From positions 164,985-228,984 of the forward strand of contig JBHIYN010000001.1 of NCBI GenBank assembly GCA_041984235.1: a stretch of DNA of 64,000 nt, given 5' to 3'. Each line of letters begins with the position of its first letter. The first letter of the stretch is position 1. Positions 4,003-29,909 of this stretch are shown one piece after another. The notes under the pieces are model-generated. The model made no database searches and was not told the origin of the DNA. It saw only the letters and a list, made by a program, of their open reading frames with translations. This stretch comes from Gammaproteobacteria bacterium. GTDB lineage: Bacteria > Pseudomonadota > Gammaproteobacteria > Ga0077536. The translations under genes were made by a program, and so were the position numbers.

Positions 4003-4092
4003 ACACCACAGGCCGGCGCCGGATGCTGGCTGCCGGTCGTGTGCTGCGCTAGATTGTCACACGGCTCGCTACGCTTCGGGGAGGGCGTGACC

Positions 4093-5538: not shown

Positions 5539-5540
5539 GT

Positions 5541-8500
5541 TCAGGGCACGGTGTCGCCGGTCGTGCCTTCGGCCGGCGCCCCGGCCGCGGCATCCGTGGC
5601 CGGGGCGTCGTCCTGGTAGGGGTGCGGATCGTCGCCCAGCCAGCGGTGCTTGATGTTGCCGATGAGGCCGGACAGCGGCCGCGTGACACCGCCCTTGACG
5701 GTGCCGTCGGCCGCGGCCTGCACGATCTCGGCGAAGTTCGACTCGGCGGCGGCCGGTGTGCCGCGGATACGGAACTGTGGACCCCTGTAGTAGCCGTACT
5801 CGTCCTGCGAGTCTTCCAGCAGGTCCATGCTGTAGAGGATGGCAGCACCCTTGCCGCTCATGTTGAGGCGCGCGTCGAGATTGAGCGGGCTGTCGAGAAT
5901 GTCCTTGCCGTCCGCGTAGTCGATCCCGCCATGGGCCGTGAGGCTGATGGTCGGGCTCTGCACCAGGAACTGCCGGATGACGATGTCGCGGCTGTCGTCG
6001 CGCACCACGTGGATGTCGATGCGGTCGTAGTCGATGACCTGGATGTAGTTGACCAGGCGTGACAGGGCGCCCGCGCCAAAGCCGCCGGTCGGCAGGTAGG
6101 AGAGCCCCTCGCCGACCACGCCGAGCACGTCGGAAGCGCCCGACATCAGCGCGCTGTCCGGCGGCAGCGGCCGGAACAGCCCGGCACGGCTGGCGAGCTT
6201 CATATCGAACAACAGCTCGTTGCGGTACTGGGCCATGTTCGGAGACTGTCCGTAGCCGTTCACGGCGACGCTGAACAGGCCCTCCACCCGCGGCTTGCTG
6301 CCCGGCACCAGCTCGGTGAAGAACTGGTTGAGGTCGAACTCCTTGATCGTGCCTGCAAGCTGCAGGTCATAGGGCGCGGCGCTGCCGGCATTGAAATCGA
6401 GTGCACCGTCGAAACGCATCGGGCTGTCGTGGAAGTCGGCGCCGAGCTCGGACAGGGTCAGGCGGGTCGGCGTGAGATCGATCTTGCCGGCCACGTCGTC
6501 GAAGATGACGTAATCGGTGTAGTAGAGGCTGTCGATACGGTAGTCGACCCGGGCCGCGTAGGGCAGCAGGTCCCAGAAGGCGCGCTGGTCGGGCTCGGTC
6601 GCTGCCGCCACCGGCCGCACCGTCGCCGGCTCGGCGTCCGCGTCCTGCTTGCGGTCTTTCTTGCCGCGTTTCATCGCCGTCTTGCCGCGCGGCGCGGCGA
6701 TCGCGTCCAGCGCCGCCAGCACGTCGTTCAGGTAGAAGCGCCCGGAGCGGAAATCCAGCTCGAGCAGCGCCTGCTCCGCGTCGCTCGGGTCGTAGGTCGC
6801 GCGCAGCAGGCCGTCCGTACGTCCGCTGCGGCCTTCGCCGCCAAGCGGCATCTCGAAACTGAAGCCCACCCCATCTGGCTGCATGGCGCCGTCGGCGCGG
6901 GCCTGCATGCGGCCCACCGCCAGCGGCGAGTCCGCGGCAAGGTCGGCCAGGGTCGCGGTCCCGCCGATGCTGCCGTCCTCGTCGACCGTGGCTTCGAGCT
7001 GCAGCGCGCCGCGCGCGAGGCGGTGGCCGGGCAACAGCGCCGGTTGCTCCAGCAACGCCGGCAGGTGGCCGACGAGGCCGGCGCGCATGTGGCGCAGCGG
7101 CACGCGGTGCTGGGGCTCCAGGGCGAAGCTCATGCTGCCGCTGAGCGCGGCGTCGGCGTCTCCGGCGAAGGCCAGCGCGACCGTTTCCAGCGCGGCCTCC
7201 AGGCGTTGTCCCCGTGCCTCTATCTCACCCGCGGCGGTGAACGAGAAGGGGCGCAGCAACGGGCCGTCCGCGCCGCTCACGCGCACGCCGTCCAGGCGCA
7301 GGGCCTCGCCGAGGTCGGCGTGCAGGCTGTCACCGTCGGAATCGAGGGTCGCGCGTGCGCTGAGCGCGTCGAAGGCCAGCGGACCCAGGTTCACGAGGTC
7401 GGCAAGCAGGGCCGAGGACAGGTCCTCGACCTCGGCCGAGAAAGTCCCGCTGAGATGCCGGGCGAGCGGTTCGTCGGCGTCGATGTGCGGGCGCACGATC
7501 AGCGGGGTCGCGTTGGCCAGGCTGAGGAGGGTCCGTTGGTCGGCGGACAGTGCCGCCGTCAGCCGGGAAACGTCGACCCGGTCAGGGGTGGCGGCGAGGT
7601 CGTAGTCGAGATCGAGCCGCCAGCGGTGCTGCGGGTCGATGTCGCCCAGCGCCGCCACTAGCGCGGCGACGCGGTGCAGGGCATTGAGCGATACGCGGGC
7701 CGTGCCGCGCGCGCTGAGCGGCCGTTCGGCGCTGCCCTCGCCCAGCGGCACGCCGACCTCGCCCGCGCCCTGCAGCAACTCGACGCCGCCGACGCGCGCA
7801 TCCAGCGCGGTATAGCGGAGCGCCGCGCGCTCCGGGTGATAGCTGAGCTCGGGACGCACACTGAGCGATAGGCGCTCGACCAGCGCGCCGTCCGCACCGC
7901 GTACGGCCACGTCGCGGAGCCGCAGCGCCTCGCGGCTGGCGAGGCTGAGCTGTGCGTCGTCACCCGCGCTCAGCGTGAAGCTGCCGGCCTCCAGCGTACC
8001 GCCGATAGCGAAGCCCGCGACGAAGGGATCCAGCCAGGCCAGGTCGAGCGCCTGCAACTGCACCAGGGCGAGTTCACCGGCCGGGTTGCGCAGCGCCGGC
8101 GCGCCTGCGCCGAGGCCGATGGCAAACGGCTGCAGTGCCGATACCTGTACCAGCGGCGCCGCGCCGTCGTGCGCGACGGAGAATTCGAGCTCGCTGATCC
8201 GGATGCGCTCCGGCGCGGGTGCCAGCGCCGCGCGGAAGGCGGCGGCCAGGCCGGCGGGCAGGGTGTAGGGCTCCAGCCGCTGCGCCAGCGGCGGCACACG
8301 GGCCACGGCATCGAGGTCGATCTCGCCGCTGACGGTAACGGCAGGCGCGGCCGCGCCGGTACTGCCGCGCGCCAGCGTGGCGCCGGCCTGCAGCGTGGCC
8401 AGGATCGAGTCGCCGAGCGCCAGGCTGAGCGCGTCGAGCCCGATCTCGATGCGTTTCGCGCCGATCCGGGCGCGCGGGCGCAACGACACGCGGACGTGCT

Positions 8501-10022
8501 GCTCGATGCCGAAGGCGGGGGTCAGCGTCGCGGCCTCCACCCCCAGCGGCTGCAGCGGCCGCACGGCGAGGGCGCCGCCGCCGGTGACCAGCTCGAAAGC
8601 ACCGCCCAGGGCACCCTCGGCTACGGCGGGCTCCGCCAGCAGGCCGTTGAGCCACGGCAGCGGCAGCGCGGTCAGGGTCAGCGTGGCACGCGTTGCTTCC
8701 TCGTCCATGACGGCCGCGGGCTGGTCCAGGGGGACTTCGAGCGGGGCGCTCAGCGAGAATTCGATCAGCGCCTGCTCCGGCCCCCGCGTCAGGCGTGCAC
8801 CGGCTTCGTGCAGCTCGGCCCGGCCGTCCGCTAGGTAGGCGCCGAGCCGCGTGCCGAGGTTGAGCACGGTCGGCAGCCCGGTGGCCGGACCGAGTACGCG
8901 CTCCAGCTCCTCGATGCGCATGTCGCCCGCGTAGTCGGCGCCGACTGCGCCGCTGCCGAGGTCGGCGAGAAAGGTGCCGTGCCCGCGCTCGCTGAAGCGC
9001 GGCACGCGCGCTTCCGGCGCGTAGGCGAGGACCAGGCCGTAGTCGAAGCCGAGCTCGAAGTCGCCGGCGGCGACGTGCGCGTCGGCGTCGTAGGTACCGG
9101 TAACGCCGAGGCGGACGAGATCGCCGTCACCGCCGGGCTTGGCCAGCACCAGCTCGAAGCGGTCGCCCGCGATGCGGGTCGCCTCCGCTGCGTCCGGGTC
9201 GCCGGCGGGCTCGCGCAGCGGTGTGGCGCTGAGCTCGATCGCCACGATTTCCTCGTCCGGCAATGCCTGCGCCGCCACCAGCGCGAGCAGGTCCGCGGCC
9301 ACGGCGCTGATCGTGCCCGCGTCGCCCTGGGTCAGGCTGACCGGGCCGGCGACCTCGATGCGGGCGCCGTCGCCGGCGCGTGTCGCCACCAGGTCGAGAT
9401 CCAGCGTGCCGGTCGCTTGCGGCGCCAGGCCGCCGCCGCCGAGACGGAACTCGACCACGAGATCGGCGGCCGGCAGCGCCTCGCCGCTGATCGCGACCCC
9501 GTCCAGTGCCACTCCCCAGCCGTGGTCGAGCAGCGTGAACAGGCCCGGAAACGGCGGCGCTGGATCGGCCGCCGGCGGCATCCCGCGGGTGTCGATCCCG
9601 AGGCCGGCGATGGCGAGGCGATTCACTGCGACGACCCGGAACAGCGCCTGCCACGGCGAGAAACCGAGCTCGGCATCGCGCAGGTGCAGCACCACGCCCT
9701 GGTGCGCCAGCTCGAGACCGCTCACCGACAGCGACCATGGCAGCAGATGCACACGCTCCACCTCGAAGCGGTCGACCCGCGCGCCCATCTGGTCGCGCAG
9801 CACGCGCGTCTGCAGCCGCGGATGGAACAGCGTGACGAGCACCGCGCACACCAGCAGCGCGGTTATCGCGAGCGGCCAGCGGCGGCGATGCAGCCACTGC
9901 CGCAGGCGCGACGCCGGGAGTTTGTCGGTGGAGGTCACGGGGATCGGGGTCGGCGCGCCCGCCGTGGCGTCCCGCGGATGGTCGGGTGCCCGCTGGCGCG
10001 AAGAAGCTTGTGGGAGCGGCAT
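5541..10022 (-). CDS. AsmA/YhdP-like giant envelope protein (1493 aa)
   Basis: A single N-terminal transmembrane helix (WPLAITALLVCAVLVTLF) is followed by a very long Ala/Gly/Leu-rich repetitive beta-rich region and an AsmA-like C-terminal region. The start is uncertain. Confidence 0.6.
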   Translation of the reverse strand: MPLPQASSRQRAPDHPRDATAGAPTPIPVTSTDKLPASRLRQWLHRRRWPLAITALLVCAVLVTLFHPRLQTRVLRDQMGARVDRFEVERVHLLPWSLSVSGLELAHQGVVLHLRDAELGFSPWQALFRVVAVNRLAIAGLGIDTRGMPPAADPAPPFPGLFTLLDHGWGVALDGVAISGEALPAADLVVEFRLGGGGLAPQATGTLDLDLVATRAGDGARIEVAGPVSLTQGDAGTISAVAADLLALVAAQALPDEEIVAIELSATPLREPAGDPDAAEATRIAGDRFELVLAKPGGDGDLVRLGVTGTYDADAHVAAGDFELGFDYGLVLAYAPEARVPRFSERGHGTFLADLGSGAVGADYAGDMRIEELERVLGPATGLPTVLNLGTRLGAYLADGRAELHEAGARLTRGPEQALIEFSLSAPLEVPLDQPAAVMDEEATRATLTLTALPLPWLNGLLAEPAVAEGALGGAFELVTGGGALAVRPLQPLGVEAATLTPAFGIEQHVRVSLRPRARIGAKRIEIGLDALSLALGDSILATLQAGATLARGSTGAAAPAVTVSGEIDLDAVARVPPLAQRLEPYTLPAGLAAAFRAALAPAPERIRISELEFSVAHDGAAPLVQVSALQPFAIGLGAGAPALRNPAGELALVQLQALDLAWLDPFVAGFAIGGTLEAGSFTLSAGDDAQLSLASREALRLRDVAVRGADGALVERLSLSVRPELSYHPERAALRYTALDARVGGVELLQGAGEVGVPLGEGSAERPLSARGTARVSLNALHRVAALVAALGDIDPQHRWRLDLDYDLAATPDRVDVSRLTAALSADQRTLLSLANATPLIVRPHIDADEPLARHLSGTFSAEVEDLSSALLADLVNLGPLAFDALSARATLDSDGDSLHADLGEALRLDGVRVSGADGPLLRPFSFTAAGEIEARGQRLEAALETVALAFAGDADAALSGSMSFALEPQHRVPLRHMRAGLVGHLPALLEQPALLPGHRLARGALQLEATVDEDGSIGGTATLADLAADSPLAVGRMQARADGAMQPDGVGFSFEMPLGGEGRSGRTDGLLRATYDPSDAEQALLELDFRSGRFYLNDVLAALDAIAAPRGKTAMKRGKKDRKQDADAEPATVRPVAAATEPDQRAFWDLLPYAARVDYRIDSLYYTDYVIFDDVAGKIDLTPTRLTLSELGADFHDSPMRFDGALDFNAGSAAPYDLQLAGTIKEFDLNQFFTELVPGSKPRVEGLFSVAVNGYGQSPNMAQYRNELLFDMKLASRAGLFRPLPPDSALMSGASDVLGVVGEGLSYLPTGGFGAGALSRLVNYIQVIDYDRIDIHVVRDDSRDIVIRQFLVQSPTISLTAHGGIDYADGKDILDSPLNLDARLNMSGKGAAILYSMDLLEDSQDEYGYYRGPQFRIRGTPAAAESNFAEIVQAAADGTVKGGVTRPLSGLIGNIKHRWLGDDPHPYQDDAPATDAAAGAPAEGTTGDTVP

Positions 10023-10166
10023 GATACCACCGGCGTGCCGGCGCGGGCGGCCGGCCGCAGCCGGCCGCGGGCGGTCGTGCGGGCAGTGGGCTGCATGCTA
10101 CGGTGGCACGCACCGTGGCCGCGCCGCGCCGGTGCACGGGGAGTGGTCAAAAAGAGGGGAGTCACC

Positions 10167-10808
10167 ATGGGCATACGTCCGTCGTTTCGTTTCTGGATCG
10201 CCGCGCTGGTCGGCGCCGTGCTGCTGGGGGGCTCGGCATCGTCGGGTGCTCGCGACCGCGGCGCCGGCCGCGACAACGCCGAGCAGGAGGTCGCGGAGCT
10301 GATCCATTGCTACGCACGCGGCACCGATGCCATCGGCGACGCCACCACGCAGTTCGACCCGCTCGCCGCAGGACTGGCCATATACCGTGACTGTTTCGTC
10401 GAGGAGGCCGTGTTCCGCGCCTGGTTCCCGCAACAGCCGTTCGATGCGCAGGCCTTTCCCGACTTCGAGGCGACGCCGCCGACTTCGACGGTCAACGGCG
10501 TGCAGGGCTGGGCGGAGTTCGTGGACGGCGTCTTTCGCGGCAACGGCTACGATTTCACGCAGCACGTGATCTCCAACGTCGACGTCGACGTGCGCGGCCG
10601 GCGCGCCACGCTGACTGCCTACCTCACGGCGTCACACGTGATCTCGGGCGAGGGCGTCGGCGGCCCCTCACGCTGCGTGGCGGTGGCCAACGGCACCTAT
10701 TCCGTCGCGGCCGAGAAGCTCGGCGGGCGCTGGCGCGCGACCAGCCTGGACCTCACCCTGATTACCTTCAACCCGGTGTTCGAGAGCGGCACGGGCTGTA
10801 CGCCGTGA
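10167..10808 (+). CDS. secreted SnoaL/NTF2-like fold protein
   Basis: A strong SD (aaagagggga) sits 6 nt before the ATG. The protein has a signal peptide ('MGIRPSFRFWIAALVGAVLLGGSASSGA') and is consistent with an NTF2-like fold. The rest of track ORF 8979..10808 is an antisense artefact. Confidence 0.65.
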   Translation: MGIRPSFRFWIAALVGAVLLGGSASSGARDRGAGRDNAEQEVAELIHCYARGTDAIGDATTQFDPLAAGLAIYRDCFVEEAVFRAWFPQQPFDAQAFPDFEATPPTSTVNGVQGWAEFVDGVFRGNGYDFTQHVISNVDVDVRGRRATLTAYLTASHVISGEGVGGPSRCVAVANGTYSVAAEKLGGRWRATSLDLTLITFNPVFESGTGCTP

Positions 10809-10881
10809 CGAGCGCCCCGCGTTGTCGTCGTCGGCGGCAGCGCGGGGCGCCCTCCGGCCGCCGCACGCGGCCGCGCGGCGC

Positions 10882-12018
10882 TCACAGCGAGCGCGCGATG
10901 ATCTCCTTCATGATCTCGCTGGAGCCTCCGGCGATGCGCGACACGCGCTGTCCGGCCCAGGCACGTGCGATCGGAAATTCCCACATGTAGCCATAGCCGC
11001 CGAACAGCTGCAGGCAGTCGTCGAGCACCTCGCACATGGTTTCGGTAGCATGCAACTTGGCCATGGCGGCATCGTCGGCGTCCAGCGCCCCTTCCATGTG
11101 CAGGGCGAGCAGGCGGTCGATGAAGGCACGCGTGACCGCGGCGCGGGTTTTCACCTCGGCCAGCTTGAAGCGCGTGTTCTGCAGCGCGAACAGCGGCTTG
11201 CCGAACGCCTCGCGTTCACGCGTGTAGCTCACGGTGGCCTCCAGTGCGGCTTCTATCGTCGCCGCGGCGCGCAGCGCGACCAGCAGGCGTTCCTGCGCCA
11301 GCTCGCGCATCAGGTAGCTGAAGCCGCGGTTCTCCTCGCCGAGCAGGCGCTCCACCGGCACGTGCACGTCGTTGAAGAAGAGCTCCGAGGTGTCCTGCGC
11401 CTTCCAGCCGATCTTCTCCAGGTTGCGCCCGCGCTCGAAGCCCGCGTCGCCACGGCGCAGCAGCAACAGGCTGATGCCCCTGGCACCGGCCTGCGGATCG
11501 GTCTTGCACGCGGTGATGACGACGTCGGCCAACTGGCCGTTGGAGATGAAGGTCTTCTGGCCGTTGACGCGGTAAGCGTCACCCTCGCGCCGCGCGCTGG
11601 TGCGGATCGCAGCGAGATCGCTGCCCGCGCCCGGTTCGGTCATGGCGATCGCGCCGATGATTTCACCGCTGCACATGCCCGGCAGCAGCTCGCGCTTCTG
11701 CGCCTCGCTGCCGAAGTGCAGGATGTAGGGCGCGACGATCCCGGAATGCAGGTGGAACGCCGGGCCGCTGGCCTCGACCCGCGCCAGCTCCTCGGTCACG
11801 ATCGCGGTGTGCAGGAAGTCGCCGCCCGGACCGCCGTAGTCCTCGGGCACGAAGCAGCACAGCAGGCCGTTCTCGCCGGCCGCGCGCCAGACCTCGCGGC
11901 TGACCATGCCGTCGCGCTCCCACTGCGCGTGGTGCGGCACCACCTCGCGTTCGATGAAGCGGCGTACGCTGTCGCGGAACATCTCGTGGTCGGGCGAGTA
12001 GACGGTGCGCGGGATCAT
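10882..12018 (-). CDS. acyl-CoA dehydrogenase
   Basis: ACAD motifs are present: 'GAIAMTEPGAGSDLAAI' and 'GGYGYMWEFPIARAWAGQRVSRIAGGSSEIM'. The start is taken at 'MIPRTVYSPDHEMF'. Confidence 0.85.
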   Translation of the reverse strand: MIPRTVYSPDHEMFRDSVRRFIEREVVPHHAQWERDGMVSREVWRAAGENGLLCCFVPEDYGGPGGDFLHTAIVTEELARVEASGPAFHLHSGIVAPYILHFGSEAQKRELLPGMCSGEIIGAIAMTEPGAGSDLAAIRTSARREGDAYRVNGQKTFISNGQLADVVITACKTDPQAGARGISLLLLRRGDAGFERGRNLEKIGWKAQDTSELFFNDVHVPVERLLGEENRGFSYLMRELAQERLLVALRAAATIEAALEATVSYTREREAFGKPLFALQNTRFKLAEVKTRAAVTRAFIDRLLALHMEGALDADDAAMAKLHATETMCEVLDDCLQLFGGYGYMWEFPIARAWAGQRVSRIAGGSSEIMKEIIARSL

Positions 12019-12650
12019 GCTGGCTTGTCCTCGTTCAGGTAGCGGGCGCGGAACTCCGCGGTGGCGTTGCCACGCGGAAAATCGATGGCGGGCAGCGGCC
12101 GGTCGAGAAAGTCGCACAGCGGCTGCCAGCCCTGGCGCACGTCGAACTCGAGCAGGCGGTCGGCGGGCACGCCGGCGTGCACCGCGCGGCGGTGGCGTTC
12201 GAAGAGATCGCGCATGAAAGACGCTTCATCGGCGCGGCCCTCGAACAGGCCGCCGACCAGGTCGCGCGCGACCAGGCGCCGGCGCCGCGCGGTATCCGGG
12301 TCGTCCCGCGGGATGTGGCGCACGACGGTGAGTATGGTGGCCTCGAGGCTGGCGTACCAGGCGCCGGGGTCGCGCACGGTCAGCACCACCTTAGCCGCGG
12401 GGTAGCGCTCGACCAGGGTGCGCCAGTGGTACATGGCCGGGAAGTCCACCGCCGCCCGGTAGCCCTCGAAGATGGTGTCGAAATCGGCCCCGGGATCGCC
12501 CGCGGCCGCTTCCCAGAACGCGGTGTCCTGCGGCCGCTCGACGACCTCGTTCATGTGGTAGCAGCGCCGGTAACCGAGATGCTCCAGCGCGTACTTCAGC
12601 GATTCGGTGCCGGTGCGCGGCAGCCCCGCACCGATGACCTCCAGCGCCAT
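12015..12650 (-). CDS. sulfotransferase family protein
   Basis: The N-terminal PAPS-binding P-loop 'GLPRTGTESLKYAL' is present. The stop overlaps the ACAD start by 4 nt (ATGA coupling). Confidence 0.65.
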   Translation of the reverse strand: MALEVIGAGLPRTGTESLKYALEHLGYRRCYHMNEVVERPQDTAFWEAAAGDPGADFDTIFEGYRAAVDFPAMYHWRTLVERYPAAKVVLTVRDPGAWYASLEATILTVVRHIPRDDPDTARRRRLVARDLVGGLFEGRADEASFMRDLFERHRRAVHAGVPADRLLEFDVRQGWQPLCDFLDRPLPAIDFPRGNATAEFRARYLNEDKPA

Positions 12651-12790
12651 GGGTTTTTCCCGTGTTTGTTTGCGCCGCAGGCTAGCCGGGTTTGCGCCCG
12701 TGGCACAAGCTGCGCCGGTGCCGCGTCCCGGGCCTGTTGCCGCATCGCGGGTGACGGTATGCTCTGCGCCTCTGCGACAGGAGGACGGCG

Positions 12791-13660
12791 ATGAAATTCG
12801 GACAGTACGGCGTGTTCACATTCACCGATGTACTCGATGCGGGGCAGCTCGCGGAGTGCGTGAAGCGGGTCGAAGCCCTGGGCTATTCCACCTTGTGGTA
12901 CCCCGAGGCGTTCCACTACGAAACCTTCGCGGTCGGTGCCTACATGCTCGCACACAGCTCCAAGCTGGTCGTCGCCAGCGGCATCGCCAACATCTACGCA
13001 CGCGATCCGGCCGCTTCGGCCATGGGTCACAACTCGCTCAACGAGCTCTACGACGGCCGCTTCGTGCTCGGGCTCGGCGTGTCGCATGCGCCGCTGGTTT
13101 CCGACGTGCGCGGACACGAGTACAAGCGTCCGCTGGCCACCATGCGCAAGTACCTCGACGACATGGACGGCGCCTGGGAAGCGCTGGGCGGGGCGCCGGC
13201 TGCGAAGCAGATCGCGCTGGCCGCGCTGGGCCCGAAGATGTCGGCCCTCTCGGCCGAGCGCACCCTGGGCGCCTTCCCCTACAACATCACCCCTGACCAG
13301 GTTGCGATGTCGCGCGACGCCATGGGCGCGGAGGGAGCGATCGTCTGCGAGCAGAAGGTCTGTCTGTGCAGCGATGCGAAGCAGGCCCGCGAGGTCGCGC
13401 GCGCGGCGCTCGCCCCGTACATGAACCTGCCGAACTACTACAAGAACTGGTTCCGACTCGGCTTCGAGCAAAGCGACCTCGAAAACGGCGGCAGTGATCG
13501 CCTGATGGACGCGATGGTGCTGTGGGGTGACGCCGCGACGATCAAGGCCGGGCTGGAGCGCTATCTCGCCGCGGGCGCCGACCAGGTCGTGATCCAGCCG
13601 CTGCGGGCGGACGGACAGCCGGGGCCGGACTACGCCGCCCTCGAAGCCCTCGCCCCCTGA
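12791..13660 (+). CDS. LLM-class (luciferase-like) flavin/F420-dependent oxidoreductase
   Basis: 'MKFGQYGVFTF...STLWYPEAFHYETF' is typical of LLM F420-dependent oxidoreductases. The ATG is preceded by 'caggaggacggcg'. Confidence 0.75.
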   Translation: MKFGQYGVFTFTDVLDAGQLAECVKRVEALGYSTLWYPEAFHYETFAVGAYMLAHSSKLVVASGIANIYARDPAASAMGHNSLNELYDGRFVLGLGVSHAPLVSDVRGHEYKRPLATMRKYLDDMDGAWEALGGAPAAKQIALAALGPKMSALSAERTLGAFPYNITPDQVAMSRDAMGAEGAIVCEQKVCLCSDAKQAREVARAALAPYMNLPNYYKNWFRLGFEQSDLENGGSDRLMDAMVLWGDAATIKAGLERYLAAGADQVVIQPLRADGQPGPDYAALEALAP

Positions 13661-13662
13661 CA

Positions 13663-13940
13663 GACCGGCGTGAAGCTACTGCGCTCGCCGGCTGGCGTCC
13701 TGGCGGTGCTCGCCCTCCTCACATAGGACCGACTATGCTGCGGGGGCTGCGCTCCGGCAGGACGCCACCCGGCTTCGCTCGCTACGCTTCACGCCGGCCT
13801 GTCCCGGCCCGAAAAGGCCTGCGCTTGCCGGCTGGCGGCCTGGCGGTGCTCGCCCTCCTCACATAGGAGCGACTATGCTGCGGGGGCTGCGCTCCGGCAG
13901 GACGCCACCCGGCTTCGCTCGCTATGCTTCACGCCGGCCG
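13663..13940. repeat. tandem direct repeat: two copies of a 119-bp unit, 140-bp period
   Basis: Unit 1 is 13681..13799 and unit 2 is 13821..13939, differing at 4 positions. A 12-nt sequence 'ccggcgtgaagc' at 13666..13677 is the exact reverse complement of the unit end 'gcttcacgccgg', which is present in both copies. Each unit carries an AGGAG/AGGAC motif followed by ATG. Confidence 0.85.
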
Positions 13941-13947
13941 GTTTGGC

Positions 13948-14415
13948 CTACCGGTAGCGCGCCGCGGTGATGAACTGTGCGAAGGATTCGCACCACACCA
14001 CCACCGTCGTCCACTGGCCGACGTCGAGGCCCGGCGGAACCGCGACGACGAAGTTCTCGAAGGTCTGCACCGGGCCGACGCGGATCGAGCGGGCCTTGAG
14101 CCGTTCGAATGCCGCACCGTCGTCGACCCACTCGGGGGCGAGGTAGAGCTGGTAGTCGGGGCCGGGGGCGAGCCGGCCCAGCAGGGCGACGCGGTCGTTG
14201 GCGACGAACACCTCGCCTTCGCCCCAATGCAGGAGGTCGCTGCCGGGCAGCCCTCGTTCGAAGCGGCCGCTGAAGCGTGCCTGGTCGCCGAGTGCCTGCA
14301 CCAGGTCGACGGGCGGCGCCGGCGGCGCGGTCAGGATTGGCAGGGCGTAGATGCCGAGCGCGAAGCCCGCGGCGAGCGCGAGCGCGTGGCTGGCGGCGAG
14401 CAGGAGGTAACGCAT
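13948..14415 (-). CDS. DM13-domain protein, secreted (putative electron-transfer domain)
   Basis: It has a signal peptide and DM13-like C-terminal motifs 'GPDYQLYLAPEW' and 'WTTVVVWCESFAQF'. It lies immediately downstream of copA on the same strand. Confidence 0.65.
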   Translation of the reverse strand: MRYLLLAASHALALAAGFALGIYALPILTAPPAPPVDLVQALGDQARFSGRFERGLPGSDLLHWGEGEVFVANDRVALLGRLAPGPDYQLYLAPEWVDDGAAFERLKARSIRVGPVQTFENFVVAVPPGLDVGQWTTVVVWCESFAQFITAARYR

Positions 14416-14464
14416 GACGCGAAGATAGCGCCCGTCGCGGCGCCGGACAATGCGGGCACGGCGT

Positions 14465-16903
14465 CTACAGCGTCAACCGGCGCAGTCGCAGTGCGTTGCC
14501 GATTACCGAGACCGAGCTCAGGCTCATGGCCGCGGCCGCGATCATCGGGCTCAGCACGATGCCGAAGAAGGGGTAGAGCACGCCGGCAGCGACGGGTACC
14601 CCGGCACTGTTGTAAGCGAAGGCGAAGAAGAGGTTCTGGCGGATGTTGGCAATCGTCGCCCGTGACAGGCGCCGCGCGCGCACGATGCCACGCAGGTCGC
14701 CGCGCACCAGGGTCACCGCGGCGCTCTCCATGGCGACATCGGTGCCGGTGCCCATCGCGATGCCGACGTCGGCGCGCGCCAGCGCCGGTGCGTCGTTGAT
14801 GCCGTCGCCGGCCATCGCCACCACCCGGCCTTCCCGCTGCAGCGCGCTGACGCGCTCGGCCTTGTCTTCCGGCAGGACACCGGCGTAGACCTCGTCGATA
14901 CCGAACTCGCGCGCTACCGCCGCGGCCGTGGTCGCATGATCGCCGGTCAGCATGACGATTTGCAGGCCCTCGGCACGCAACGCGGAGACCGCTTCGCGCG
15001 CGCCCTCGCGCAGCGGGTCGGCGACCGCGACCAGTCCCGCGACCTGCCCGTCCTCGGCCACGAACACGACCGTCTCGCCCGCTTCGCGCAGGGCCGCGGC
15101 GCGCGCCTCTAGGGCACCGGCGTCGAGACCGTCCGCGGCCATCAGCGCGGCATTGCCGAGCGCCACCGCGCGCCCTTCGATGCGGCCGCGCACGCCGAGA
15201 CCGGTGGCCGATTCGAACGCTTCGGGTGCGACCGTGGCAATGCCACGCCCGCTGGCGCCGCGCACGATCGCCGCGGCCAGCGGGTGCTCGCTGCCGCGCT
15301 CCAGCGAGGCGGCGATACGCAGCACGTGATCGGCCTCTCCGCCGTTCGCCGCCTCGACCGTGGTCAGGGCCGGCCGCCCCTCGGTCAGGGTGCCGGTCTT
15401 GTCGACCAGCAGGGTGTCGACGCTGCGCAGGACCTCGATCGCCTCGGCATCGCGAAACAGCACGCCGGCCGCCGCGCCCTTGCCGGTCGCGACCATGATC
15501 GACATGGGCGTGGCCAGCCCCAGCGCGCAGGGGCAGGCAATGATGAGTACCGCGACGCTGTTGACCAGTGCATGCGCCATCGCCGGCGGCGGACCGAACA
15601 GCGCCCACACGGCGAACGTCACGATGGCGATGCCGATCACCGTTGGCACGAACCAGCCGGCGACGACGTCGGCGAGACGCTGAATCGGCGCCCGGCTGCG
15701 CTGCGCTTCTGCGACCAGGGTAACGATGCGCGAGAGCAGGGTGTCGGCGCCGACCCGGCGCGCCTCCATGACCAGCCCGCCGCGGCCGTTGACGGTGGCA
15801 CCGGTGACGTCATCGCCGGGCCCTTTCTCGACCGGTACCGCCTCGCCCGTGATCATCGACTCGTCGACCGCACTGGTCCCATCCACGACGACACCGTCGA
15901 CCGGGATCTTCTCGCCCGGCCGCACGCGCAGCCGATCGCCGACCGCCACCGCGTCCAGTGCGACGTCGTGTTCGTCGCCCGCGGCGTCGATGCGGCGCGC
16001 GGTCGCCGGGGCCAGGTCCATCAGCTCGCGAATGGCGGTGCCGGTGTGGGCGCGCGCGCGCAGCTCGAGCACCTGGCCGACCAGGATCAGCGTAACGATG
16101 ACGGCGGCCGATTCGAAGTACACGGGGACGGCGCCATCCGCACCACGGAAGGCGGCCGGGAAGAGCTCCGGCGCCAGGGTGGCCACGGTGCTGTAGCCGA
16201 AAGCCACGCCGACCCCCAGACCGATCAGGGTGAACATGTTCGGGCTGCGATTCACGACCGAGCGCCAGGCACGCTGGTAGAACGGCCAGCCCGCCCACAG
16301 GCACACCGGCACCGCCAGCGCGAGCTCCAGCCAGGGGCGGACACCGTACCCGAGCGCGCTGGAAACCGGGTGTCCCGGCAGCATGTCGAACATCGTCAGC
16401 GCGACCAGCGGCACCGAGAGCAGGGCGGCGAGGACGAGGCGCCGGCTCATGTCGTCGAGCTCGGGATTGGCCTCGTCGACGGTGATCGTGGTCGGCTCCA
16501 GTGCCATGCCGCACAGCGGGCAGTCACCCGCTTCGTCGCGCACGATCTCGGGATGCATGGGGCAGGTCCACTGCGTGCGCCGCGCAGGCTGCGGCAGACC
16601 CTTGACCTCCAGCGCCATGCCGCACCTGGGGCAGTCGCCCGGACCGACCTGCTCGACCTCGGGGTCCATGGGGCAGGTGTAGACGGCGTCGGCCGGGCCG
16701 TCCTGCGCGGCTGCGCGCAGCGCGGGATCGAGGTAGCGTTGCGGGTCGGCCGCGAACTTCTCGCGGCAGCCGTTGCAGCAGAAGTGGTACACGGTGCCGG
16801 CGTGCTCGTGCCGGTGCGTGCTGTCGGTGCTGACCTGCATACCGCAGACCGGATCGCGGAGCTCCTCCGCGCCGGGCTGCAGCGGGCTCGTCGACTGGTT
16901 CAT
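14465..16903 (-). CDS. copA: copper-translocating P1B-type ATPase
   Basis: An N-terminal YHS-type domain ('DPVCGMQV...[12 protein letters not shown]') and two 'TCPM(D/H)PE...GDCP(R/L)CGMALE' metal-binding repeats are present. ATPase hallmarks include the transmembrane CPC motif '[13 protein letters not shown]', 'DKTGTLT' and '[10 protein letters not shown]'. The start is at 'MNQSTSPL' with a GAGGA SD. Confidence 0.9.
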
Positions 16904-16913
16904 GAGTGCGTCC

Positions 16914-17195
16914 TCAGCAGTTGCAGTTCTTGTCGAACACGCGCACGAGCTCGGCAATCTTCTCGGCGCGTTCGCCGGCGTCGCGGCTGTCGAAGGCGTC
17001 GGCCACACAGGTCTCGATGTGCGATGCGAGCAGCAGGCTGCCGGCCTTGCCGAGCGCCGCACGCGCCGCCGCGATCTGCAGCAGGATGTCGACGCAGTAT
17101 CGATCCTCGTCGACCATGCGCTGGATGCCGCCGACCTGTCCGGCTACGCGGCGCAGGCGGGTTTCGATCTGGCGTTTCACGTCGTTGCTGCGCAT
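16914..17195 (-). CDS. csoR: CsoR/RcnR-family metal-sensing transcriptional repressor
   Basis: A 93-aa protein with the DUF156 fold pattern, a conserved 'YCVD' motif and a C-terminal CNC. It is immediately upstream of copA on the same strand. Confidence 0.8.
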
Positions 17196-17215
17196 CGTTC
17201 TCGCTCCCTGTTCTG

Positions 17216-17232
17216 ATACCCCATGGGGGTAT
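17216..17232. promoter_or_regulatory. candidate CsoR operator: inverted repeat ATACCCC-ATG-GGGGTAT
   Basis: A 7-3-7 perfect inverted repeat lies 21 nt upstream of the csoR start codon in the csoR/ribA-paralog divergent region. It matches the GC-rich palindrome style of known CsoR operators. Confidence 0.6.
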
Positions 17233-17378
17233 TATAGCCGAAGCCTGAGGGCCCCTGGCTACACTCGGCGCACGCGATCGCCGACAATGCGGCCTGCATG
17301 TCACCACTGGGCCGTCGGCGTTGCCGGCGCGTACCCGATTCGTCACCCGCCGCAACGCCATCAGCAGGAAATTTCACC

Positions 17379-18173
17379 GTGTTCAGCTACGTCGACGTCT
17401 CCATCCGTGAAAAGCTCGAGGCCGGCGGCCTGCTCGTGACCCTGAACCGGTCCGCCGAGGTCGTTGCCGGCGACGATCGCGAGGCGTTCATCTCGGTGCT
17501 GGGGCCGGTGCCGATCCCGCGCCTGATCGGTGACACCGAGGTCATGCTCGAGTGGTACCCGTTCGTGCGCAGGACCGAGCTCTCGGCCGTGCTGGACGCC
17601 GCCCGCCAGGTCGACGACGGGCACTCCGAGGCTTTCCGGCAGCTCCTGCACAGCTCGATGTCGGTCAACTCGGTCTTCGCCCTGCCCGGTTTCCGGGCTG
17701 CCGACCGGCCCCTGGTGCGCCTGCATTCGTGCTGCCTGACGGGCGACGTCTTCGGCTCGCGGCGCTGCGATTGCGGGCCGCAGCTCGAGGCTGCGTTCGA
17801 GCAGATCTTCGACGTCGGTGCCGGTGCGGTGGTCTACATGAGCGGCCACGAGGGGCGCGGCATCGGCCTGTGGGCGAAAGCGGTGACCTACCTGCTGCAG
17901 GATGCCGGCCACAACACTTACGAAGCGAACACCGCGCTCGGCCTGCCCGAGGACTCGCGCGACTTCAGCGATGCCGCGGTGGTGCTGCGCTACCTGCTCG
18001 CCGGCCGGGGCCTGCGCCTGCTGTCGAACAACCCGGACAAGCGCGCCCAGCTCGAAGCCCACGGCCAGCCGGTGCTGGAGGCGGTGTCACTGGTGGCCGG
18101 CCTGTGTGAGCACAACCTGCGCTACATCCGCGCCAAGCGCAGCAAGGGCCACCTGATCTCCGACGACGTCTGA
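17379..18173 (+). CDS. ribA: GTP cyclohydrolase II (RibA-like paralog)
   Basis: The zinc-binding motif 'CLTGDVFGSRRCDCGPQLE' and 'GHEGRGIGLWAKAVTYLLQDAGHNTYEAN' are present. A GTG start with an AGGAA SD is chosen; track ORF 17298..18173 is an alternative. It is divergent from csoR. Confidence 0.7.
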   Translation: MFSYVDVSIREKLEAGGLLVTLNRSAEVVAGDDREAFISVLGPVPIPRLIGDTEVMLEWYPFVRRTELSAVLDAARQVDDGHSEAFRQLLHSSMSVNSVFALPGFRAADRPLVRLHSCCLTGDVFGSRRCDCGPQLEAAFEQIFDVGAGAVVYMSGHEGRGIGLWAKAVTYLLQDAGHNTYEANTALGLPEDSRDFSDAAVVLRYLLAGRGLRLLSNNPDKRAQLEAHGQPVLEAVSLVAGLCEHNLRYIRAKRSKGHLISDDV

Positions 18174-18293
18174 AGCCCGGCAAAGGGCGCCTGCGGTTCA
18201 GCAGGCGTTCACCTCGCCGGTCGTAGCCTGCGTGTCACGGCCGGCGCCCTGTCGGCGCCCGGCCGGTGAAGTCAAATCGCAAAGGAGACGACC

Positions 18294-18752
18294 ATGACTC
18301 GCAAGCTGGGTAAATCGCTGACGATCGCCGGGGCCGGCTTGTGCCTCGGCCTGTTCGCCGGTGTCGCCGGCGCGCACGAGACCGGGCACCGCGACTGCGA
18401 AAAGCAGGTGCACGAGCATCACCACACCCACTACTACGCGCCGCCGCCCGCGCCGGTAGCCTACGCGCCGGCGCCGCAGGCGCCTGCCTACGGCGGCGGC
18501 TACGCCCCCGGCTATGGCTACGCGCCCGCTCCGGCGCCGGCCTACGGCTACGGTCCGCGCCACGCCCCGGCACCGCGCTACGCGGCGGCCAGCTACAGCC
18601 CGTCACCCAATTTCGGCAATGCCGTGGGTGGTGCGCTGGGCGGCTTTGTCGGCTCCAAGATCGGCAAGGGCTCGGGCAACAGCGCGGCGACTGCCGCAGG
18701 TGCGGTGCTGGGCTACATGCTGGGCGGCCACGTCGGCACCAACTGGCGCTGA
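18294..18752 (+). CDS. secreted His-rich / Pro-Ala-Tyr-repeat protein with C-terminal glycine-zipper domain
   Basis: A strong SD 'aaaggagacgacc' precedes the ATG. The protein has a signal peptide, a His cluster 'HETGHRDCEKQVHEHHHTHYY', low-complexity 'YAPAPAPAYGYG' repeats, and a glycine-zipper (GxxxG run) C-terminus 'GGALGGFVGSKIGKGSGNSAATAAGAVLGYMLGG'. Confidence 0.7.
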   Translation: MTRKLGKSLTIAGAGLCLGLFAGVAGAHETGHRDCEKQVHEHHHTHYYAPPPAPVAYAPAPQAPAYGGGYAPGYGYAPAPAPAYGYGPRHAPAPRYAAASYSPSPNFGNAVGGALGGFVGSKIGKGSGNSAATAAGAVLGYMLGGHVGTNWR

Positions 18753-18780
18753 GCGCCGGCGGTCTCGCCCGGGGCGGTCA

Positions 18781-18804
18781 CGGGGCGGGCTCAGTCCCGC
18801 CCCG
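18781..18804. terminator. GC-rich hairpin in a convergent intergenic gap (bidirectional terminator candidate)
   Basis: 'cggggcggg-ctcagt-cccgccccg' forms a stem of 8 to 9 bp between the glycine-zipper gene end (18752) and the ABM gene end (18814). There is no T-tract, as is usual in high-GC genomes. Confidence 0.45.
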
Positions 18805-18813
18805 TGGCGGCGC

Positions 18814-19107
18814 TCAGCCGTCGAACTTGTCGTAGTAGAGGATTGTCGGCGGCGCGGTCAGCATGCTGCCGAGCGCCTCCATGACGCCGGTCTCGGTGCG
18901 CCACTGGATGTACTTTTCCTGGTGCTGGCGCGAATCCCAGATCTCGTAGAACAGCACGTGACCGGGCTTGTCCTGGTCGATCCAGATATCGAACAGCTGA
19001 CAGCCGTCGTAGGCGCGCGTGTCGGGCGCAGCACCCTTGACCGCAGCCAGGAAGTCGTCGAATTTCGCCGGGTCGACCTGCAGGTCGAGCGTGACGCATA
19101 CCGCCAT
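18814..19107 (-). CDS. antibiotic-biosynthesis-monooxygenase (ABM) domain protein / putative quinol monooxygenase
   Basis: A 97-aa protein from 'MAVCVTLDLQVDPAKFDDFLAAVK' consistent with the ferredoxin-like ABM fold. A GAGGGG SD precedes the start. Confidence 0.6.
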   Translation of the reverse strand: MAVCVTLDLQVDPAKFDDFLAAVKGAAPDTRAYDGCQLFDIWIDQDKPGHVLFYEIWDSRQHQEKYIQWRTETGVMEALGSMLTAPPTILYYDKFDG

Positions 19108-19240
19108 GGGAGTTCCCCTCGATTTGGTTGGATGATCGGATTGAGCGGGGCAAGATGACACACTTCGCGGGACGCGAACAGGGTGCGCAGCGGTGCGCGC
19201 CGCGCCGGCGCAAGGCCGTGGCGGGGCGGCGGGGTACCGC

Positions 19241-19504
19241 TCAGGCGATGTCCGGATGGGTGGCGATGAAGTGCTTCATCACGCTCGTCAGCTTCTCGAC
19301 CTCGGCGCTGTCGCCGCGGCTGGCGGCGGCCGCGATGTCGTCCAGGATCATGCGCTTGATCATGCGCTCTCCGGCTTCGCTCTCGCACAGGTAGGCGGCC
19401 AGCTCGGCGGCGATGATCGGCGGCACGTGCTCGTGCTCGGCAATGGCGTCGAGCTCGTCCTCGGTCAGGTGCAGGTACTCGATGCAGTCACGCAGACAAA
19501 TCAT
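19241..19504 (-). CDS. hypothetical small acidic protein (87 aa)
   Basis: An intact ORF with an acidic, helical-looking sequence ('LTEDELDAIAEHEHVPPIIAAELAAYLCESEAGE'). It lies between the alpha/beta hydrolase and ABM genes on the same strand. Family not recognised. Confidence 0.45.
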   Translation of the reverse strand: MICLRDCIEYLHLTEDELDAIAEHEHVPPIIAAELAAYLCESEAGERMIKRMILDDIAAAASRGDSAEVEKLTSVMKHFIATHPDIA

Positions 19505-19580
19505 GGCTCACTCCCCCGGGCCGCCCACGGGCCAGATGTAACCCGATTTTCACATTTTCGTCATGATCCATGTCATGCGT

Positions 19581-19614
19581 GGCGGGATGCATTGCATCGC
19601 AACAATGCATCCCG
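19581..19614. promoter_or_regulatory. perfect 13-bp inverted repeat hairpin 'gcgggatgcattg-catcgcaa-caatgcatcccgc'
   Basis: It starts 8 nt downstream of the hydrolase stop on the minus strand. It is followed on the minus strand by an AT-rich stretch (19530..19580) that is a likely promoter for the small-protein gene. Confidence 0.4.
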
Positions 19615-19621
19615 CCGCGGC

Positions 19622-20419
19622 TCAGGCGACGCGCGCGATGAAGGCCTCGAGATCGGCGTTGAACGCGGCCGGGTTCTCGAGCTGGCAGAAGTGCGCGATG
19701 TCCTTGTACATCTTGATCTCGGCGTCGGGGATGTTGTCGGCGAGGAAGCGGTTGTGCTCGGGCGTGGTCGCGCCGTCTTCTTCGCCGGCGATGATCAGCG
19801 TCGGCTGGGTGATGTCCTTGAGGCGAGCGGAGATGTTCCAGTTGAACACGCCGTTCGGATCGGCCGCGCTGGCCCAGAACACGCCCTCGGTGAAGTTGCT
19901 CTCGGTGCGGAAGCAGCCCTGCATGAAGGCCTGGATCTCCGGTCGCTCGGCCTTGGACTTCGCCGAGACCGCGCTGTCGAGCAGGCCGCTGAAGACCGCG
20001 CGCCAGTCCTTCTGCATCGCCTCGGCGACCTCCGGCGGGGTGTCGGCGCCGATGTTCGTGCCGCTGCTCAGAATCAGGTTGGCGATGACGCGCTCGGGTG
20101 CGTCGAGGCTGGTCTGCATGGCGATCATGCCGCCGATGGAGTTGCCGACCAGGATTGCGCGGTCGATGCCGGCGTCGTCCAGAATGGCGACGACGTCGGC
20201 GGCCATCTCGCTGATGGCATAGCCGTCGGCCGGCTTGTCGGACTGGCCGTGGCCGCGGTGATCGACCGCGATGCAGCGGTGCCGCTGCGCGAACACCGGC
20301 AGCTGGAAGGTCCACACAAAACGATTGGTGCTCCAGGGATGCAGGAACACCAGCGCGGGATCGCCCGCGCCGAAGCTTTCGTAGAACACCTTGACGCCGT
20401 TACGGTTGATATGGGGCAT
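19622..20419 (-). CDS. alpha/beta-fold hydrolase
   Basis: The nucleophile-elbow motif 'GNSIGG' and 'VFLHPWSTNRFVW...HRGHGQSD' are present. An AGGAGAGG SD precedes the ATG. Confidence 0.8.
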   Translation of the reverse strand: MPHINRNGVKVFYESFGAGDPALVFLHPWSTNRFVWTFQLPVFAQRHRCIAVDHRGHGQSDKPADGYAISEMAADVVAILDDAGIDRAILVGNSIGGMIAMQTSLDAPERVIANLILSSGTNIGADTPPEVAEAMQKDWRAVFSGLLDSAVSAKSKAERPEIQAFMQGCFRTESNFTEGVFWASAADPNGVFNWNISARLKDITQPTLIIAGEEDGATTPEHNRFLADNIPDAEIKMYKDIAHFCQLENPAAFNADLEAFIARVA

Positions 20420-20470
20420 GGGTCGTGACCTCTCCTGTGGTGAAGTGAGCGTTGTGCGGTCGCTGCACGC

Positions 20471-21346
20471 TCAGAGCTTGCCGACGACGCTGTCGCCGAG
20501 CTGGTTGACGTAGTCCAGGATCGCGCTGCGTTCCACGGTGAGCGAGAACAGCTCGTCCGGCGCGGCGGGGAACAGCACGATCAGGCGGTCGACGCCGAGC
20601 TCCGCGTAGCGCCGCGCGGTGTCGAGATCGACGTTGCCCTGCGGGGTCACGCTGATCTCCAGGCGCCCCAGCCCGGCGGGACGCTCGATCTCTTGCGCGG
20701 CCGCCTCCAGCCCGTCGAGACAGGCACGGGTCTGCTCGAGGTCGAGACCGAAGCCGTACCAGCCCTGGCCGTGGCTGACGCTGCGCCGGAACGCGCCGGG
20801 CACGTGGCCGCCGAACACGGCCGGCGGTCCCGGCTGCTGCAGCGGCCGCGGAAAGGCCTTCACGCCCTCGAAGGCGACGAAGCGTCCGTCGTAGGCCGGC
20901 GCGTCTTGGGACCAGATCGCACGCATCGCTTCCAGGTACTCGAGCGTGCGCTCAGCCTTGTGCGCGAAGGGTATGCCGAGCGCGTCGAACTCCGCTTTGA
21001 GGTAGCCGATGCCGATGCCGAACTCCAGGCGGCCGCCACAGAGTACGTCCAGGCTGGCCATTTCCTTGGCCAGCACCAGTGGGTTGCGCTGCGGCAGGAT
21101 GATGATGCCGGTGCCCAGGCGGATGCTGCGCGTCTGCCCGGCGAGCCAGGCAAAACAGATGTTGGGGTCGAGCATCGGGTAGTCGGCGGGCAGCGGCGAG
21201 GGCGGGCGCTGCGGCTCGGGCAGCACGACATGCTCACCAGCCCACAGCGACTCGAATCCCGCCGCCTCGGCTGCCTGTGCGACCTCGATCGAGGCCGCCG
21301 GATCGGCCAGCGGCCCCATGTTGATTCCAAACAGTCCGAGCTTCAT
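20471..21346 (-). CDS. LLM-class F420/flavin-dependent oxidoreductase
   Basis: 'MKLGLFGINMGPLADPAASIEVAQAAEAAGFESLWAGEHVV' is typical. The start is the internal Met of track ORF 20471..21769, with a 'ggggaggggg' SD. Confidence 0.75.
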   Translation of the reverse strand: MKLGLFGINMGPLADPAASIEVAQAAEAAGFESLWAGEHVVLPEPQRPPSPLPADYPMLDPNICFAWLAGQTRSIRLGTGIIILPQRNPLVLAKEMASLDVLCGGRLEFGIGIGYLKAEFDALGIPFAHKAERTLEYLEAMRAIWSQDAPAYDGRFVAFEGVKAFPRPLQQPGPPAVFGGHVPGAFRRSVSHGQGWYGFGLDLEQTRACLDGLEAAAQEIERPAGLGRLEISVTPQGNVDLDTARRYAELGVDRLIVLFPAAPDELFSLTVERSAILDYVNQLGDSVVGKL

Positions 21347-21441
21347 TGACCCCCTCCCCGGGACGACGCGGCGACCGTCAAGGATAGTGCGCAGGCCGCG
21401 CGGCGTCGATTGCCGGCGGGCGACGCGGGCGCGGCGGTGCC

Positions 21442-22080
21442 TCAGCGCCGCCGCCGGCGCCGTGGTTCGCTGCCCGCGACGTTGACCCTGACCCCGCCAC
21501 TGCCGCCACGCAGGCGTGGCAGGCAGAGCGCCACGGCGCAGGACGCGGCGAACCACAGCAGCGCGAGTGCGGCGAGGAAGGCGCGTTGTTTGAATTCCAC
21601 CGTGCGCCGCATCCGCTCGTAGTCCACCAGTCGCCCCGGGTGCGCGTCGAGCTGCACCACTTCGAAGCGCGGCCGCTCGGCGCCCGCGCCGCGCGGCAGG
21701 CGATGATCCTCGTAGCGGGCACGCGACCACAGCGGACTGAACAGCAGGGGTGGCTCGCGCCGCGCCCACACGCGAACGGTCTCGCCGGGCGCGATGACGC
21801 CGCTGCCGAGCGGCACGTGATCGCCGTTGACGACGAACTCCACCGGGCTGCCGGCCAGGCGCAGGCGCAGCTCCTCGTGGCCGAGGAAGCGCAGGTTCCG
21901 GCTGTTGCTGAGCGCGTTGCGGTGTTGCGCCACCGCGACCACCTTGCGCGTCAGTGGCGTGAGCTGGTCGAGGGCGGGGAAGCGCGGTGCCGCGAACAGG
22001 GCCGCGATGCCGAGGAAGACCACGGCGAGCGCGGCGGCGATGGCGAGCTCCCGGCGCCAGCTGCTGCGCCCTGCGTTCAT
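21442..22080 (-). CDS. hypothetical membrane protein (N- and C-terminal transmembrane helices)
   Basis: The last gene of the Mo-hydroxylase operon, starting 9 nt after the MoaD-like stop. Family not recognised. Confidence 0.5.
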   Translation of the reverse strand: MNAGRSSWRRELAIAAALAVVFLGIAALFAAPRFPALDQLTPLTRKVVAVAQHRNALSNSRNLRFLGHEELRLRLAGSPVEFVVNGDHVPLGSGVIAPGETVRVWARREPPLLFSPLWSRARYEDHRLPRGAGAERPRFEVVQLDAHPGRLVDYERMRRTVEFKQRAFLAALALLWFAASCAVALCLPRLRGGSGGVRVNVAGSEPRRRRRR

Positions 22081-29381: not shown

Positions 29382-29909
29382 ATGAGTATCGAATTCGTCG
29401 ACCCACGTGGCGAGACACGGCGCGCCGCGCAAGCCTATGAACATGTCCTCGACGTCACCGTGCCGGCGACCATCGGCCTGCTGGCCAACGGCTTTCCCGA
29501 CTCGGTCGCGTTCCTGGACGCGGTCGAGGTCGCTCTGGGCGAGGCGCTGCCGCAGGCGAGCTTCCGCCGCTACGCCAAGCCGGGCGCCTCGGCGCCGGCC
29601 GACAGCGCGCTGGTCGCCCGCATCGCGGCCGAGTGCGATGCGCTGGTGACCGCCTACGGGCACTGAGGCAGCTGCACATCCGGCACCGTGCGTGACGGCA
29701 TTGCACTGGCCCGCGAGGGGCGCCCGGCGGTGGCCTTCGTGACCACCAAGTTCGAGCCGCAGGGCGACTTCGTCGCCCGCGCCGAGGGCATGCCCGACGT
29801 GCCTCGCGTGATCGTGCCGCACCCGGTGGCCGGCATCGGTGCTGCCGCCATGGCCGCGCTGGCGCGCGACATCGCCGTCACCGTGGTCGAACGGCTGCGC
29901 GCCGGATGA
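29382..29909 (+). CDS. UGSC-motif selenoprotein; TGA at 29664..29666 read as selenocysteine
   Basis: Track ORFs 29382..29666 and 29688..29909 are in the same frame, separated only by one TGA. Read-through gives '...AYGH-U-GSC-TSGTVRDGIALAREG...'. There is a GGAGAA SD before 29382. The gene is co-oriented with selA and selB downstream, and tRNA-Sec is present in the window. Confidence 0.75.

Follow-up and report, generated by a model that had tools for sequence, protein, structure and literature searches.

The gap between two convergent genes in an uncultured gammaproteobacterium is filled by two copies of a long palindrome. The window analysed here (64,000 nt) holds a gene for an F420-dependent LLM oxidoreductase that runs toward the gene for a DM13-domain protein. 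The 287 nt between them (13661-13947) are taken up by two near-identical direct-repeat units (Table 1). Our preferred reading, which we hold with about even confidence, is that the repeat is a non-coding, REP-like extragenic palindrome that was locally duplicated and acts as a two-way hairpin at the ends of both transcripts.

Structure and authenticity of the repeat

The direct repeat was established with three tools. One of these, TRF, reported a period of 140, 1.9 copies, 96% matches and a score of 494, and a repeat finder gave 96% identity between the units at a spacing of 140 nt. A 29-mer taken from the unit matches the window twice, with 0 matches expected. The initial annotation described 115/119 identical positions and a 140-bp period, which is right within the limits that it set (4 mismatches). 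The repeat extends 5 nt past those 119-nt limits, and a fifth difference lies in the added part. The five differences, given as unit 1/unit 2 and numbered on unit 1, are 13686 C/T, 13698 T/G, 13729 C/G, 13785 C/T and 13800 T/G.

Table 1. Features of the convergent gap and the genes around it, in window coordinates (L001, sister assembly).
Feature	Position	Strand	Length	Remarks
LLM oxidoreductase gene, F420-dependent, TIGR03620-type	12791-13660	+	289 aa	upstream flank
Hairpin 1 (left outer arm plus unit 1)	13660-13802		143 nt	imperfect palindrome; folds as a single hairpin
Left outer arm	13665-13676			CCGGCGTGAAGC; outside the direct repeat; precedes unit 1 only
GTG ORF	13670-13726		18 aa	VKLLRSPAGVLAVLALLT; hydrophobic
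Direct-repeat unit 1	13679-13802		124 nt	inner palindrome arms 13687-13721 and 13739-13773; apical loop ~13726-13731
ATG ORF in unit 1	13735-13866	+	43 aa	
Spacer between units	13803-13818		16 nt	CCCGGCCCGAAAAGGC; unique
Direct-repeat unit 2	13819-13942		124 nt	inner palindrome arms 13827-13861 and 13879-13913; 5 differences from unit 1
ATG ORF in unit 2	13875-13970	+	31 aa	
DM13-domain protein gene	13948-14415	-		last of the csoR-copA-DM13 unit; convergent downstream flank
copA, P-type ATPase gene	14465-16903	-		gene call and Pfam in L001 (offset +2790)
csoR-like repressor gene	16914-17195	-		gene call and Pfam in L001 (offset +2790)

Within each unit, two 35-nt arms are 77% complementary, which makes the unit an imperfect palindrome in its own right. 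This property and the unique spacer had both been overlooked. The reverse complement of the left outer arm recurs exactly at 13786-13797 and at 13926-13937. This 12-nt inverted repeat was known from the earlier description, which had placed its left half one nucleotide too far to the right, at 13666-13677. It grows to a 17-nt arm with 16/17 positions paired, and further to 27 nt at 81%. Unit 2 has no left outer arm, and a G at 13838 breaks one of its stem pairs.

The unique spacer between the units sets the repeat apart from a simple head-to-tail XX duplication. Such a tandem duplication was rejected as the whole story because the 16 nt on either side of the units are non-repeating. There is weak pairing between the spacer and the right outer arm of unit 2. 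Aligned by eye with a 1-nt shift, the spacer agrees with the left outer arm at 8/15 positions and might be a degenerate version of it, although this agreement is not significant. A CRISPR array, with at least three repeats of ~24-48 nt and spacers of similar size, had already been discounted, and the two 124-nt units with their one 16-nt spacer agree with that judgement. There are also no cas genes among the gene calls.

The duplication is almost certainly not an artefact of sequencing or assembly. The two-unit structure is present in both NCBI assemblies, that of the window and its sister, GCA_041987945.1 (L001). Over the ~48 kb compared, these assemblies differ at one position only, 13869 in the loop of unit 2, where the window has G and L001 has C (position 11079), the unit-1 base. 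That the sole difference falls inside the repeat could be taken as a sign of misassembly; it could come from gene conversion between the units or from consensus mixing in the repeat. A second point in favour of an artefact is a Logan contig (L004, SRR32696345, 1435-1582) in which the gap is 147 nt long and holds a single hybrid unit, with a left part of unit-1 type and a right part of unit-2 type. This is the expected appearance of either a collapsed graph path or a genuine recombinational deletion allele in the population.

The ends of other Logan contigs argue for two real units. Those that come from the left (L002, L003 and L005) end at 13759, which is 13729 + 30, and the one from the right (L127) ends at 13895, which is 13925 - 30. 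Since these contigs break k-1 = 30 nt (k=31) past unit-specific bases, the reads of several independent runs must contain both variants of the unit. With these breaks and two concurring assemblies, the earlier concern about an assembly duplication can be set aside.

Folding, coding content and transcript ends

Folded as DNA, hairpin 1 has a dG of -53.5 kcal/mol and a z-score of -8.4. As RNA, 13655-13807 forms 59 pairs with a dG of -99.5, and hairpin 2 with its flanks is somewhat weaker, with 49 pairs. RNA folding of the whole gap region gave z-scores of -8.2 on the plus strand and -9.1 on the minus strand, which are far beyond chance. The bare 124-nt units fold modestly (z -3.6 and -1.9, mononucleotide shuffles). 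Folding had been proposed as a check on the unit with its inverted repeat, and by this measure the structure is strong in the 143-nt hairpin 1 and in the region as a whole. In the predicted 124-nt fold, four of the five sites at which the units differ are unpaired (binomial estimate p ~0.04-0.06), at best a faint indication that the stem is under constraint. The only difference within the stem, T to G at 13698, breaks a pair and is uncompensated.

The repeat is non-coding. A duplicated small-protein gene was among the identities first proposed, and it is highly improbable that the ATG ORFs or the 18-aa GTG ORF encode small proteins such as a type I toxin. An SD-like AGGA does lie 6 nt upstream of the ATG in each unit (13735 and 13875), as had been claimed. 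The 18-aa peptide is hydrophobic and has a gene-like codon-position GC of 0.79/0.42/0.84, although 19 codons are too few for this to mean much. The two ATG ORFs, given before as 45 and 32 codons, have 44 (with the stop) and 32. Their codon-position GC, 0.75/0.66/0.80 and 0.66/0.81/0.72, is not gene-like compared with ~0.7/0.47/0.9 in real genes here. The ATG and the "SD" are located at the apical loop of the unit hairpin, buried atop ~40 pairs. Because the unit exits into different flanks, the two ORFs diverge after residue 23 and have different C-termini. The first of them owes its "hydrophobic tail" to in-frame reading of the left arm of unit 2, and unit 2 offers no start codon for the 18-aa ORF.

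Homology searches agreed with this assessment. A six-frame peptide query against 5.8 billion proteins returned nothing at E<=1, a weak negative since even this locus is without a called ORF. A full HMMER scan of 1.84 billion representatives returned only 3 long repetitive proteins, each with 5-11 matching stretches, which is compositional bias. The small-protein proposal was therefore dropped on codon-position GC, divergent C-termini and the lack of homologues in these searches. The case is a caution for annotation: in a GC-rich palindrome, an SD with an ATG and a "hydrophobic tail" are by-products of the sequence and not evidence for a gene.

The hairpins abut both convergent stop codons. The final base of the LLM stop codon (TGA, 13658-13660) is also the first of hairpin 1, and 5 nt separate unit 2 from the DM13 stop codon. 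The C-terminus of the LLM protein (ALAP*) is intact and identical to that of its orthologues. The other convergent gaps in the window (60-75 nt) hold perfect GC stems, of 18 bp at 10812-10850 and 13 bp at 18777-18808, with no U tract. From their sequence and placement, these stem-loops seem to be the usual two-way transcript-end signal of this genome. Orthologous LLM genes in many relatives also have an unrelated stem-loop directly 3' of them (e.g. L139, L143, L155, L162, L170 and L174), and some of these are canonical terminators. The repeat thus sits where both the genome and its relatives place transcript-end stem-loops, which bears out an earlier suggestion of a terminator-like structure. 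By analogy, the most economical reading is that its palindrome shares their role.

Since the sequence is palindromic, a hairpin can form on both strands, and RNA made from either one would be expected to carry a strong stem-loop. Hairpin 1, at the LLM stop codon, would be the 3'-end structure of the LLM transcript. Hairpin 2, read on the minus strand 5 nt past the DM13 stop, would be the 3'-end structure of the cop transcript. Each hairpin would terminate transcription without a U tract, shield the 3' end from exonucleases, or do both. REPs often lie 3' of genes, a position from which they can attenuate transcription or make the mRNA more stable. The second copy would have arisen through local duplication of the first and not by transposition; this is the least certain step.

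A scan of 13300-14300 found 0 intrinsic terminators, and no U tract of at least 5 nt follows either hairpin. The longest U runs are UUUU, which lies in the spacer 3 nt past hairpin 2 on the minus strand, and UUU after hairpin 2 on the plus strand. The repeat therefore does not have the GC stem followed by a U-rich tract of a canonical Rho-independent terminator. It does have a stable stem-loop a few nucleotides from both stop codons, as hairpin-only bidirectional terminators do. It resembles those of GC-rich bacteria in its position directly 3' of both stops, in its stem-loop on both strands and in having no U tract. It differs from them in having ~59 pairs with many bulges and in being duplicated, whereas they have 10-20 perfect pairs. 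The gap is also much longer than the other convergent gaps of the window, at 287 nt compared with 60-75 nt.

Several of these features count against a transcript-end role. A hairpin of 59 pairs far exceeds what termination needs, and the stems in the other gaps are several times smaller. No function is obvious for the duplicate, and the stem difference at 13698 has no compensating change. The unique spacer also argues against a clean tandem duplication. Furthermore, the units differ by 4% while the two assemblies differ at one position in ~48 kb, so the copies are either old or separate insertions of diverged family members.

It is also conceivable, but quite unlikely, that the units are tandem structured sRNA genes or that they give rise to sRNAs processed from the 3' UTR of the LLM or cop mRNA. 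PrrF1 and PrrF2 are a tandem paralogous sRNA pair with which such genes could be compared. The very stable fold on both strands, the AGGA exposed in the apical loop, and the conservation of the copies at 96% identity with differences mostly at unpaired sites would all suit an sRNA. The surroundings do not, as 13300-14300 contains no sigma-70-like promoter or intrinsic terminator, and unit 1 starts 19 nt past the stop codon and thus has no room for its own promoter. Rfam 15 gave no gathering-level match in the gap; in E-value mode, scores were 8-18 bits against gathering thresholds of 36-160, and the best were 13-18 bits against 44-100. In addition, the sequence was not conserved in any relative examined, and a near-perfect long duplex is atypical of a trans-acting sRNA.

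Further copies and mobile families

The repeat had also been likened to REP or MITE elements, and this comparison holds in part. The architecture is REP-like, being non-coding, palindromic and extragenic, but in the ~79 kb of this genome and 760 kb of relatives' loci searched for copies, no other copy was found that would point to a dispersed family, and the locus has no target-site duplication or nearby transposase. We consider it possible, though somewhat unlikely, that the units belong to a mobile family that is non-autonomous, being either MITE-like or a REPIN-like one mobilised by a RAYT/Y1 transposase. They would then have inserted, or been amplified as a "REPIN cluster", in the convergent gap, with other copies elsewhere in the genome.

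The likeness to REP, BIME and REPIN elements lies in an extragenic imperfect palindrome that can fold into a long ssDNA or RNA hairpin and whose size, ~120-140 nt, is in the REPIN range. Tandem clusters of near-identical REPINs in direct orientation have been described in P. fluorescens SBW25 (PMC3116915), and the two units here are arranged in the same way. With strains showing near-zero divergence, a difference of 4% between the units would suit separate insertions. The location of the repeat at a synteny breakpoint beside an acquired copper cassette, described below, would also fit a mobile element.

REP and REPIN families, in contrast, have tens to hundreds of dispersed copies and a RAYT, whereas one locus was found here in the sequence searched. 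No Y1/RAYT (PF01797), DDE transposase or integrase was present among the Pfam-annotated gene calls over ~75 kb. There was no similarity to the REP-rich E. coli genomes, and the arms have no recognisable short conserved REP core. By eye, CGGCGTGAA and GGCCTAC partly resemble the E. coli REP consensus, a resemblance that blastn did not support. Hairpin 1 is like a MITE in its length of 143 nt, its 17-nt terminal inverted repeats (16/17) and its non-coding, intergenic character. Whereas every copy of a MITE carries terminal inverted repeats, unit 2 has only the right one, and no dispersed copies or parent IS were found in the sequence searched. The flanks, TCGCCCCCTG and CCCGGCCCGA for hairpin 1 and AAAGGC and TTGGCC for unit 2, do not form a target-site duplication. 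Integron attC sites, retron msd and IS200/IS605 ends were rejected because RYYYAAC/GTTRRRY cores are absent and no gene for an RT, TnpA/TnpB or an integrase lies nearby. A type I toxin was considered and set aside alongside them.

Searches for additional copies were carried out with blastn, nhmmer and a covariance model. The initial annotation had suggested looking elsewhere in the genome, and no further copy was detected in the ~79 kb covered (the 64-kb window and ~15 kb of flanks) of a genome that is multi-megabase in size. The same three methods found none in 760 kb of relatives' loci, which were fetched via LLM orthologues. The best outside match of the covariance model (L162 580-641, 24 bits) proved on inspection to be unrelated coding-like sequence. 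Plasmids, phages and E. coli genomes yielded no match to blastn in distant mode, and a loop 24-mer and a right-arm 22-mer had 0 matches in viral contigs. A degenerate 20-mer aimed at both arms, GCCGGSTGGCGKCCTGSCGG, was also searched for in genome contigs. The matches listed were single chance ones in unrelated GC-rich genomes, and none of these extended past ~37 nt with blastn; the pattern is too degenerate and GC-rich.

The Logan data bear on the same question. The contigs enter the element and continue unbranched for 100 nt and 53 nt, and a further copy with a 31-mer in common with these parts is thus absent from those samples. This excludes a young, high-identity family there. Since the repeat is unique to this locus in the sequence covered, the more exciting readings are weakened, to the extent that ~79 kb of a multi-megabase genome allows.

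One other place in the window has a slight resemblance to the unit. In the intergenic stretch 4003-4093, which lies upstream of another LLM gene, CTCGCTACGCTTC matches the right sub-terminal part of the unit exactly over 14 nt, and ACAGGCCGGCG equals its right end in reverse. With an nhmmer E-value of ~0.4, the resemblance of these short sequences is probably due to chance.

We treat the repeat as an extragenic palindrome that works in the manner of a REP or a terminator, and not as a member of a mobile family.

The copper cassette and the surrounding genes

The synteny of the locus was compared with that of relatives (L128, L130 and L131-L134) whose LLM homologues are labelled "MAG: Gammaproteobacteria bacterium". 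In relatives whose LLM proteins are 80-83% identical, the order is acyl-CoA dehydrogenase (-), LLM (+), a hydrolase or DUF7847 gene (+) and ribA (+). Here, the order is LLM (+), the repeat, DM13 (-), copA (-), csoR (-) and ribA (+). The csoR-copA-DM13 copper cassette occupies the slot of the relatives' hydrolase or DUF7847 gene and is absent there in the relatives. Because the cassette replaces a gene that runs in the same direction as LLM in the relatives, the repeat lies at a synteny breakpoint, the left junction of the cassette. Farther downstream, the Lactamase_B and ABC-transporter genes of the relatives are absent here. Taken together with the cassette, this indicates that the neighbourhood has been rearranged.

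The nearest DM13 homologues are at most 67% identical, and the named ones among the closest matches are mostly from Betaproteobacteria. There is no clear discontinuity in base composition across the cassette. The surroundings of the DM13 homologues are unrelated and have no similar hairpin, and orthologous LLM loci in relatives have a different gap with unrelated hairpins.

A more far-reaching version of the mobile-family reading is that the two units are the only visible members of an undescribed REPIN-like family in a gammaproteobacterial lineage that is uncultured and poorly sampled. More diverged copies would then exist elsewhere, and the siting at the junction would reflect a role in rearrangement or gene capture. 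We regard this as unlikely.

Some other features of the neighbourhood were recorded during the analysis. A palindrome, ATACCCCATGGGGGTAT, lies at 17218-17234, between the csoR-like gene and ribA (17379-18173, +), in the putative promoter region of the csoR-copA-DM13 operon. We take it to be a look-alike of a CsoR operator. Paralogues of the PF00296 luciferase-like monooxygenases are unusually dense, with four within 20 kb (window 2800-21800 and L001), and are accompanied by acyl-CoA dehydrogenases, SnoaL-like proteins, Rieske oxygenases and P450s. This set of enzymes suggests a hydrocarbon- or steroid-degrading lifestyle. The window also contains a UGSC-family (PF24696) selenoprotein gene at 29382-29909 (+), a single 175-codon frame with an in-frame TGA followed by GSC (…TAYGH*GSCTSG…), which gene callers split into ORFs of 94 aa and 73 aa. 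It is located ~2 kb upstream of selA (32160-33584), selB (33581-35494) and tRNA-Sec (36830-36921).

The repeat is novel in sequence and ordinary in concept. On the reading preferred here, it would be an oversized, duplicated transcript-end palindrome without relatives in the data searched, from an uncultured GC-rich gammaproteobacterium, and it would matter little beyond annotation. Its position is precisely that at which the ancestral downstream gene gave way to a copper-resistance cassette. If many copies were present in the complete genome, the units would define a new REPIN- or MITE-like family for the lineage. If there are no further copies, they would be an example of terminator-type hairpins expanding and duplicating locally.
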